Shown one piece after another: positions 21,356 to 22,341 of a stretch of 64,000 bases of DNA. The notes beneath the pieces were generated by a model. It did not search any database. It saw only the letters and a list, made by a program, of their open reading frames with translations, and was not told the DNA's origin. The first letter of the stretch is position 1. Each line of letters starts with the position of its first letter. The position numbers and the translations under genes were made by a program. The stretch covers positions 177,851 through 241,850 of the forward strand of contig JAVRCV020000008.1 of assembly GCA_034530615.2 (NCBI GenBank), read 5' to 3'. This stretch comes from Aulosira sp. ZfuVER01 (GTDB lineage Bacteria; Cyanobacteriota; Cyanobacteriia; Cyanobacteriales; Nostocaceae).

Positions 21356-21667
21356 ATGAATTTAGGTATTGAATCTAGTAACCAGCAATTAAAGAAAAAC
21401 CAAGTAGTCTTCCTTGATAAAGCACAAATAGCACTTGATGCTTTACAAACTGAAGACCAAGCAAAAGTGATTGATGTCATCAATTGCTTAGAAGAATTTC
21501 CTGATTGTTCCCTAGTTAAAACTAATAAACTGAAATCTATTCCCAATTATTTCATTGCGCGTTCTGGGAGATATAGAATTATTTTTGAATTTAAACCTGA
21601 GCAAATAACTATTGTTGATATAGTTAATCATAACCGCCTTGAAATTTTATATAGCTCATTAACATGA
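21356..21667 (+). CDS. RelE/ParE-superfamily toxin-like protein (GTG 21320 is an alternative start)
   Basis: VVFLDKAQIALDAL..DQAKVIDVINCLEEFP...KLKS...FIARSGRYRIIFEF...ITIVDIVNH matches the RelE fold pattern. Confidence 0.72.
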   Translation: MNLGIESSNQQLKKNQVVFLDKAQIALDALQTEDQAKVIDVINCLEEFPDCSLVKTNKLKSIPNYFIARSGRYRIIFEFKPEQITIVDIVNHNRLEILYSSLT

Positions 21668-22341
21668 AAGGTCTAGATTCTTTTGTTATAGACCTTAAAC
21701 AATGCCTATTTGAGCTTGAAGAATTTAAAAATTTACTTCTTAACAGTAGCGAACTAAAAGAAAATCAAGATATACTCCCATTCTTTATACAAAGATTACA
21801 TTTATCGGCATTTATTGGTTCTTACGTTCCTCAACTCGTGAGATTCAATCAAATCAAACACGAATTTACATTTTACGGAGACTTTCGTGCTGATTTAGCT
21901 GTTGGTGATTCTGTAAATAATACTTATTGTTTCATTGAATTTGAAGATGCTACTCAAGACAGCATCTTTATAGAGAAAGGAAGAAGTACATCAGATTGGT
22001 CACCTAGATTTGAACATGGATTTAGCCAAATCATTGATTGGTTTTGGAAGATTGATGATTTTAAAAATACTTCATTAGCTCGCTCTATTTTTGGAAGTGA
22101 GAATATAGAATTTTATGGCATCCTTGTGATCGGCAGAGATTATTTCATTTCTCCTATTGATCAAGCTAGATTAAAATGGCGTTTAAATAAAGTTTTAGTA
22201 GACTCACGTAAAGTTATTTGTATAACATTCGATCAATTGGCTAGAGATATTAGAGATAGACTTTCACTGTATCCACTGATATATGAAGCTGAATCTCAGG
22301 CTGAACAATTTATTTCAACAGATGAAAGCGATCGCTCTTAA
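21664..22341 (+). CDS. Shedu (SduA)/DUF4263-type nuclease-domain protein
   Basis: E.F.GDFRADL...FIEFED PD-(D/E)xK-like core, FEHGFSQIIDW, GILVIGR, ITFDQL; ATGA overlap with the upstream gene. Confidence 0.78.
   Translation: MKGLDSFVIDLKQCLFELEEFKNLLLNSSELKENQDILPFFIQRLHLSAFIGSYVPQLVRFNQIKHEFTFYGDFRADLAVGDSVNNTYCFIEFEDATQDSIFIEKGRSTSDWSPRFEHGFSQIIDWFWKIDDFKNTSLARSIFGSENIEFYGILVIGRDYFISPIDQARLKWRLNKVLVDSRKVICITFDQLARDIRDRLSLYPLIYEAESQAEQFISTDESDRS

Follow-up and report, generated by a model that had tools for sequence, protein, structure and literature searches.

The pair of small genes between the DHH and sixA genes of the window (the whole stretch of 64,000 nucleotides of Aulosira sp. ZfuVER01 analysed here) appears to be an undescribed two-gene variant of Shedu, in which a protein with the fold of RelE-type toxins is encoded immediately ahead of a nuclease-only DUF4263 protein. 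It is close to certain that the pair is a real, dedicated and widespread two-gene unit with linked genes: a RelE-fold gene lies directly upstream of the nuclease gene, on the same strand, in 80/80 loci, namely the 80 best-scoring among 220 gene 2 relatives. The manner in which the pair decays suggests that the toxin-shaped partner is likely a safety catch and not a poison, and we give about an even chance to the partner working like an antitoxin, as a non-catalytic inhibitor of a nuclease that would otherwise poison its own cell.

The features of the locus are collected in Table 1. A sequence-only reading of this DNA had described an AT-rich pair with an ATGA overlap and with no antitoxin gene ahead of it, and the description holds: GC content is 0.30 in gene 1 and 0.32 in gene 2 vs 0.45 in the DHH gene, 0.44 in sixA and 0.41 in the window, and the + strand between the DHH stop codon (21243) and gene 1 contains no open reading frame of at least 60 aa. 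A scan for promoters and terminators returned nothing exceeding chance. The closest relatives of the pair are found in Nostocales-type cyanobacteria. The DHH–sixA site of five genomes of the same genus is empty in two (G003, G007) and holds other cargo in three (an HNH gene in G001 and G013, different cargo in G011), and the RelE–Shedu pair is therefore an insertion.

Table 1. Features of the RelE–Shedu locus (window coordinates).
Feature	Position	Strand	Remark
AGGA, likely ribosome-binding site of gene 1	21340..21343	+	12 nt 5' of the ATG at 21356; putative function, from sequence
Gene 1, RelE/ParE-fold partner, 103 aa	21356..21667	+	predicted inhibitor or regulator
ATGA stop/start overlap (TGA of gene 1, ATG of gene 2)	21664..21667	+	putative translational coupling
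Gene 2, nuclease-only (Type 2) Shedu/DUF4263, 225 aa	21664..22341	+	predicted active site E33, D77, E92, E94, Q122
Motif III, E92-F93-E94	21937..21945	+	E replacing the usual K
vapB/DUF2281-like antitoxin gene	22403..22618	+	same insertion, outside the conserved pair; weak Pfam and NCBIfam matches
vapC remnant	about 22611..22695	+	outside the pair; first and last stretches kept, ~300 nt internal deletion; alignment with L012, read by eye

The DHH–sixA interval (21243-22720 of the window; L214-L218) is an insertion hotspot of the Nostocales that, depending on the genome, is empty or contains an HNH nuclease gene, RusA-like and AHJR-REase/HEPN genes, the Shedu pair, vapBC or other cargo. The vapB-like gene and deleted vapC of the same insertion had been missed by the sequence-only reading. 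The former shares 73% identity with the gene preceding an intact PIN-domain gene in L012, where an intact vapBC (with a PIN match) occupies the same place. This vapBC was rejected as a component of the system, no downstream gene being conserved among the 61 loci screened. An HNH endonuclease gene at 18642-19139 (Pfam HNH, E 1e-15) is probably core, because L026 likewise has one ahead of its DHH gene.

Gene 2 encodes, as had been proposed, essentially the DUF4263 nuclease core alone. It matches Pfam SduA_C/DUF4263 over residues 33-192 (E 5.5e-32; 111.6 bits vs a curated cut-off of 27), its residues 1-210 match the 211-position PADLOC SduA model (E 2e-97), and its AlphaFold model (pLDDT 89) has E. 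coli and B. cereus SduA (8ps4, 8ps5, 8ti9) as top Foldseek matches; a sequence-profile search of the PDB with gene 2 found no Shedu. DUF4263 begins at residue 33 of 225, so the protein lacks an N-terminal domain, and three members of its clade are included in the Type 2 sheet of Gu et al. (10.1101/2023.08.10.552793) with N-lengths of 32-33. A nuclease-only protein is not in itself new, since Type 2 Shedu is already a published class, given in that preprint as 2,286/7,687 homologs.

The five predicted active-site residues are invariant in 73/73 aligned gene 2 homologs, and their spacing (44/15/30) matches that of B. cereus SduA (45/15/31; E204, D249, E264, Q295, with K266 in motif III), so that the motif III lysine is replaced by glutamate throughout the clade. 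The IEFED that had been read in place of the usual E-x-K is residues 91-95, and the motif of the clade is E-x-E-[DN] with no lysine nearby and no basic residue at positions 94-95. As a marker unique to this clade E-x-E was rejected: among 14 other cyanobacterial Shedus the motif is E-x-K in 10 and E-x-E-[KH]-P in 4, and VEFEDA is present in one longer protein of apparently different type. In a quick tree the gene 2 clade forms one side of a branch (SH-aLRT 99) vs these 14 Shedus. Short Shedus of a sister branch (L132, L140, L144, L149), with motif III E-x-E-[KH]-P, are without a RelE-fold partner. The dN/dS of gene 2 is 0.07-0.20 against 10 relatives; its active site appears to be under selection, and the protein is a predicted nuclease. 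E-D-E-E active sites are reported to be functional in BamHI and OkrAI (PMC3025578), PD-(D/E)xE endonucleases that share with gene 2 the four acidic active-site residues and the glutamate for the motif III lysine; unlike them, the window cassette has no conserved methylase gene, and homology, as far as tested, does not go beyond the superfamily fold. K-to-E changes are reported in the same paper to cripple EcoRI and EcoRV, and the nuclease activity of gene 2 is therefore not guaranteed.

The RelE/ParE pattern that had been noticed in gene 1 is borne out by concordant profile, model and Atlas searches, all of which indicate a RelE/ParE (BECR) fold. Gene 1 alone is under the Pfam ParE cut-off (17.3 vs 23 bits), and Pfam ParE matches within the partner family are at E 2e-4 or weaker, with 14/63 members matched at E 0.05. 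The family profile matches YoeB and archaeal RelE in the PDB (E 3e-4), RelE structures are the top matches of the predicted model (pLDDT 88; 1wmi, E 6e-6), and hhalign relates the family to eight ordinary RelE/ParE-type proteins at a probability of 98.6. The partner family is separated from ordinary RelE/ParE by a score gap (62.9 vs 43.7 bits in 401 cyanobacterial genomes) and numbers 601 clusters at E 1e-10 and 2,425 at E 0.001, the latter probably including ordinary RelE. Its conservation is loose, with no invariant residue and only L30 and D88 at 90% or above, and its C-terminal signature is D-[IV]-V-x4-L (D88 in 70/73). The dN/dS of gene 1, also against 10 relatives, is 0.28-0.60.

In RelE, R61, R81 and Y87 are reported to be essential and K52 dispensable (PMC12620021). 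Partner residues were mapped onto E. coli RelE through ordinary RelE, a two-step alignment whose C-terminal register differed between aligners and is approximate. The equivalent of R61 (R74) is kept in 63/73 partners and R/K69 is present in 53/73; the K52 position is K/R in 1/73, and, in the approximate register, the R81 position is variable (H20, R14, Q12 and K8 among the 73) and the Y87 position is Y in 7/73. The RelE mRNA-interferase catalytic set of R61, R81 and Y87 (and K52, K54) is thus not retained in full by the partner family, although a ParE-like, non-catalytic toxicity would still be compatible with its sequence. Positions 25 and 67, basic in ordinary RelE, are hydrophobic in the partner, which would suit a protein-binding face. 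The median net charge of the partner is +1 vs +4 to +10 in six antitoxin-paired RelE controls, two further controls being at -4 and 0.

Alternatively, the partner could be a second effector, of either the ribosome-dependent RNase or the ParE-like gyrase-poison type, that is quiet until infection and works alongside the DNase without controlling it. The clear RelE/ParE fold and the retained equivalent of R61 would agree with this, as would reports that RelE-fold toxins are known in other defence operons and that ParE toxins without RNase residues are still toxic (PMC11980606). We nevertheless regard a second effector as quite improbable: the R81 and Y87 positions are not conserved, the partner stays intact and alone after the nuclease is lost, and neither a cognate antitoxin in the window nor a conserved flanking gene in the 61 loci screened accompanies it, whereas the weaker-scoring ordinary RelE/ParE matches that were examined mostly have an antitoxin-like neighbour. 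The sequence-only reading had left the partner as either a trans-acting regulator or a second effector, and of these the regulator fits better because the partner outlives the nuclease and the RelE C-terminal catalytic positions are not conserved.

The linkage of the two genes was seen in a genome scan that covered one genome per species with search patterns that partly favour the EFE motif. The junction of the pair is a 4-nt overlap in 38 of the 80 loci and measures 20 nt or less in 72. An iterated, position-blind profile search that started from the window-type partner and covered the 3,915 open reading frames of 124 loci converged on 124 matches, exactly one per locus. In a motif-blind control that used Pfam PF14082 over 401 cyanobacterial genomes (35 places, 30 examined), the partner was present at 14/16 clade members vs 0/14 other Shedus; one of the two clade members without a partner is at a contig edge and the other is a fragment. 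The distant loci L159 and L164 have a small upstream open reading frame whose match to the partner profile is non-significant. No conserved third gene was found around the pair in 61 loci.

Chance neighbourhood in an insertion hotspot was rejected as an explanation, the pair being constant while its flanks vary. A frameshifted or split single gene was likewise rejected: the 80 loci have two separate open reading frames in every case, with varied junctions, and no RelE–Shedu fusion appeared among three longer matches (from a weak search) or among the best 150 of 2,425 representatives. The earlier description of the pair as a possible 'split' Shedu consequently has no direct support. Inter-protein covariation over 73 paired rows (effective 46), a sample with little power, gave no signal: the best z of 6.0 falls inside the range of the shuffled maxima, whose mean is 5.8 and highest value 7.8. 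Similarities of the two proteins correlate in a Mantel test (rho 0.36, p 0.001; 57 distant pairs), a correlation not counted as co-evolution because host kinship is still in the signal.

The two genes are lost unequally. In 389 genomes of the window's family a nuclease search gave 37 places, of which 30 are intact, 2 full-length with a stop and 5 fragments, and an intact partner stands at all 30 intact nucleases. A window-type partner is present in 35 of these genomes, with the nuclease intact in 19; in the other 16 it has been deleted, truncated or stopped, and the lesions responsible are of several kinds. The 401-genome sample yields 29 strong partner matches with the nuclease intact at 14, a remnant at 9, absent at 5 and at a contig edge in 1; the reverse count finds an intact partner at 14/15 intact nucleases, the remaining one lying at a contig edge, and no other conserved effector gene lies behind the orphan partners of this sample. 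The 389- and 401-genome samples overlap and their genomes are kin, and the 16 decayed loci are not 16 independent events, since the genomes are related and many have the partner fused to another protein. The nuclease gene is also twice the mutational target of the partner gene. Within the 80 loci selected by their nuclease, broken nucleases (L012, L026, L039) are no commoner than broken or doubtful partners. L027 and L162 combine an intact nuclease with a partner divided between two frames, and the partner is possibly damaged in L054 and L051; these cases may be assembly errors or true exceptions. The vapBC beside the pair decayed likewise. One-sided loss of the nuclease is the pattern to be expected of a downstream gene that does harm once its upstream neighbour is gone.

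The same linkage and clade specificity would also fit if the partner were a required activating or sensing subunit, standing in trans for the N-terminal sensor, with the nuclease inert in the absence of the partner and a phage signal. Loeff et al. (10.1101/2023.08.10.552762) suggest in their preprint that target recognition by Type II Shedus depends on additional co-factors, and the two-gene KELShedu is reported to need both genes, its nuclease alone being non-toxic (PMC12577705). The absence of a basic residue at motif III positions 94-95, an E-x-E site without lysine, also agrees with a need for activation, and the intact nucleases beside broken partners in L027 and L162 would then be harmless. 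However, an activator predicts that either gene may be lost first, and the losses observed in the window's family run one way (0/30 intact nucleases without an intact partner, 16/35 partners without a nuclease). Fusions of the partner to antitoxin-type DNA-binding domains better fit a repressing role, and an activating subunit is considered unlikely.

The partner of L031, which adjoins the nuclease, carries a Phd/YefM domain at its N-terminus, and two further partner homologs of unassigned context carry a fused Phd domain in one case and a fused ParD-type domain in the other. A DNA-binding domain joined to a second domain, upstream of the nuclease, is the usual antitoxin layout. In many Nostocales the partner forms the C-terminal domain of a ~400-aa protein that opens with an AHJR-like REase domain and continues with an R-x4-H (HEPN-like) region; the gene for this protein usually lies behind a RusA-like gene. 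The AHJR-REase/HEPN and partner are separate genes in L109, and the fusion is therefore probably secondary. A RusA-like gene overlapping an AHJR-like REase and HEPN-like gene recurs upstream of the pair (L012:2401-4004, L109:667-1329, L114, L116, L120, L124), often with the latter fused to the partner, and the two may constitute a two-gene module of their own. In planctomycetes the partner can also carry one of several unnamed N-terminal domains of ~60-170 aa (L030, L039, L045; P0204, P0232, P0275; L053, P0203; L082, P0177, P0270), and these matched no Pfam family or, for the L045 domain searched against the Atlas, no named Atlas family.

Hosts of the pair fall in 11 phyla by tree labels, and copies are carried on plasmids of Aliarcobacter, Rhizobium and Enterobacter, on viral contigs, in a Vibrio prophage and in 1/5,426 E. 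coli genomes. The spread is patchy (4/61 genomes). The pair is inserted beside the ssb gene of P1-like phage-plasmids in L155, L156, L162 and L163, and in a Pantoea plasmid (L164:2612-3525) the nuclease and its small upstream open reading frame lie among antirestriction, methylase and psiB genes, surroundings typical of a plasmid leading region. One planctomycete genome (G757) contains five copies (L250, L252, L254, L260, L261), each with its own partner; of its nucleases, three appear intact, another is divided between two frames and the fifth is interrupted. Most pairs lie between housekeeping genes. At E 1e-20 PADLOC matches 8/105 flanking open reading frames, four of the eight being generic kinases or methylases, and the defence-island context is therefore weak.

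It is possible on these grounds that the pair is a selfish toxin–antitoxin (addiction) cassette with the same inhibitor–nuclease wiring and no real anti-phage role, and the housekeeping surroundings with few defence neighbours, the five copies in one genome, the patchy spread and the frequent loss of the nuclease would all accord with such a cassette. Against this, the Shedus that have been tested are reported to be anti-phage nucleases (Gu et al.; PMC12577705; bioRxiv 10.1101/2022.06.16.496414), and the pair does adjoin defence genes in places: it lies beside Gabija gajB, between replication and lysis genes, in the Vibrio prophage, and three loci have it next to Ppl, BnzB or PDC-S39 matches. 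A purely selfish role is accordingly given a low probability.

The pair resembles Type 2 Shedu in having a DUF4263 core without a sensor domain, with motifs I, II, III-E and IV spaced as in B. cereus. Type 2 Shedu is described as a single-gene system that is probably constitutively active (Gu et al.) or of unclear mechanism (Loeff et al.), whereas the window pair and its relatives have a dedicated upstream RelE-fold gene and the motif III E-x-E-[DN]. The two tested nuclease-only Shedus that were traced look like other subtypes, BAI39103.1 by its motif and KpSduA by its 82-residue C-terminal extension. The sequence-only reading had described Shedu as a single-gene system; the two-gene KELShedu (KELA–KELB), whose partner is unrelated, has however already been published (PMC12577705). 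Like the window pair, KELShedu is an operon of two genes in which the DUF4263 nuclease follows immediately on a small gene; its KELA, however, is described as a DNA-binding WYL-like SH3 barrel and its KELB as keeping an N-terminal domain and being non-toxic alone, whereas the window pair combines a RelE-fold partner with a nuclease that lacks such a domain. Type 1 Shedu (B. cereus SduA 8TI8/8TI9; E. coli SduA 8PS4) has the same nuclease fold and a core that is restrained by a second module, as is proposed for the pair, but its restraining module is a fused N-terminal domain, and the fusion searches described above turned up no nuclease joined to a RelE fold. With ordinary RelE-type toxins the partner shares the fold and the R61-equivalent arginine, and it differs from them in its lack of a cognate antitoxin, its C-terminal signature, its upstream position and its predicted antitoxin-like role.

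We propose that the RelE-fold partner likely binds and restrains the predicted DUF4263 DNase as an antitoxin would, taking on in trans the role that falls in Type 1 Shedu to the fused N-terminal domain. The stop/start overlap would have the partner made first and in step with the nuclease. Upon phage infection the partner would likely let go or be lost, and the nuclease would then cut DNA; our best guess for the trigger is that the partner is depleted or displaced once the phage takes over host gene expression. The direction of this regulation, inhibition, is preferred because of the decay pattern and the sequence features. It presumes a nuclease that would be active and self-toxic, two proteins that would bind each other, a partner that would have no RNase activity and a pair whose purpose would be phage defence. 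Gu et al. (10.1101/2023.08.10.552793) report that B. cereus Shedu stripped of its N-terminal domains is a highly toxic nuclease core which the N-terminal domain restrains. The nuclease-only E. coli Shedu BAI39103.1 is reported in the KELShedu preprint to be protective as a single gene, and an inhibitor is therefore not required by every sensor-less Shedu; motif III of BAI39103.1, E-I-E-K-P, is of the type found in the partner-less sister branch. The fuller proposal, in which a RelE fold has turned antitoxin and become a dedicated, infection-releasable inhibitor of sensor-less Shedu DNases that form a widespread clade and have an E-x-E site resembling that of BamHI, so that the toxin-fold protein is the antidote in a toxin–antitoxin-type defence, is put forward tentatively, with somewhat less than even confidence.

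No paper describing the pair was found in the literature on Shedu/DUF4263 with RelE, ParE or antitoxin, a search that had most subscription papers outside its scope, including the journal versions of both Shedu structure papers. The text supplements of Gu et al., searched apart from figures, do not mention RelE, ParE or toxin, and Shedu/DUF4263 goes unmentioned in the portion of PMC11980606 covered here. The sole prior trace is a GenBank prophage record in which adjacent genes are labelled 'RelE-like' and 'Shedu SduA'.

The control of Type 2 Shedus is left open by both structure papers in their preprint form, which have these nucleases as always active (Gu et al.) or as needing co-factors (Loeff et al.), and for a large Type 2 clade the RelE-fold protein is a candidate co-factor. 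Annotation tools score these loci as single-gene Shedu, and cloning the nuclease alone would therefore mislead. If the partner is indeed an inhibitor, one of the most familiar toxin folds would here have its role reversed, which would serve as a warning that genes called as 'orphan RelE' can be antidotes.
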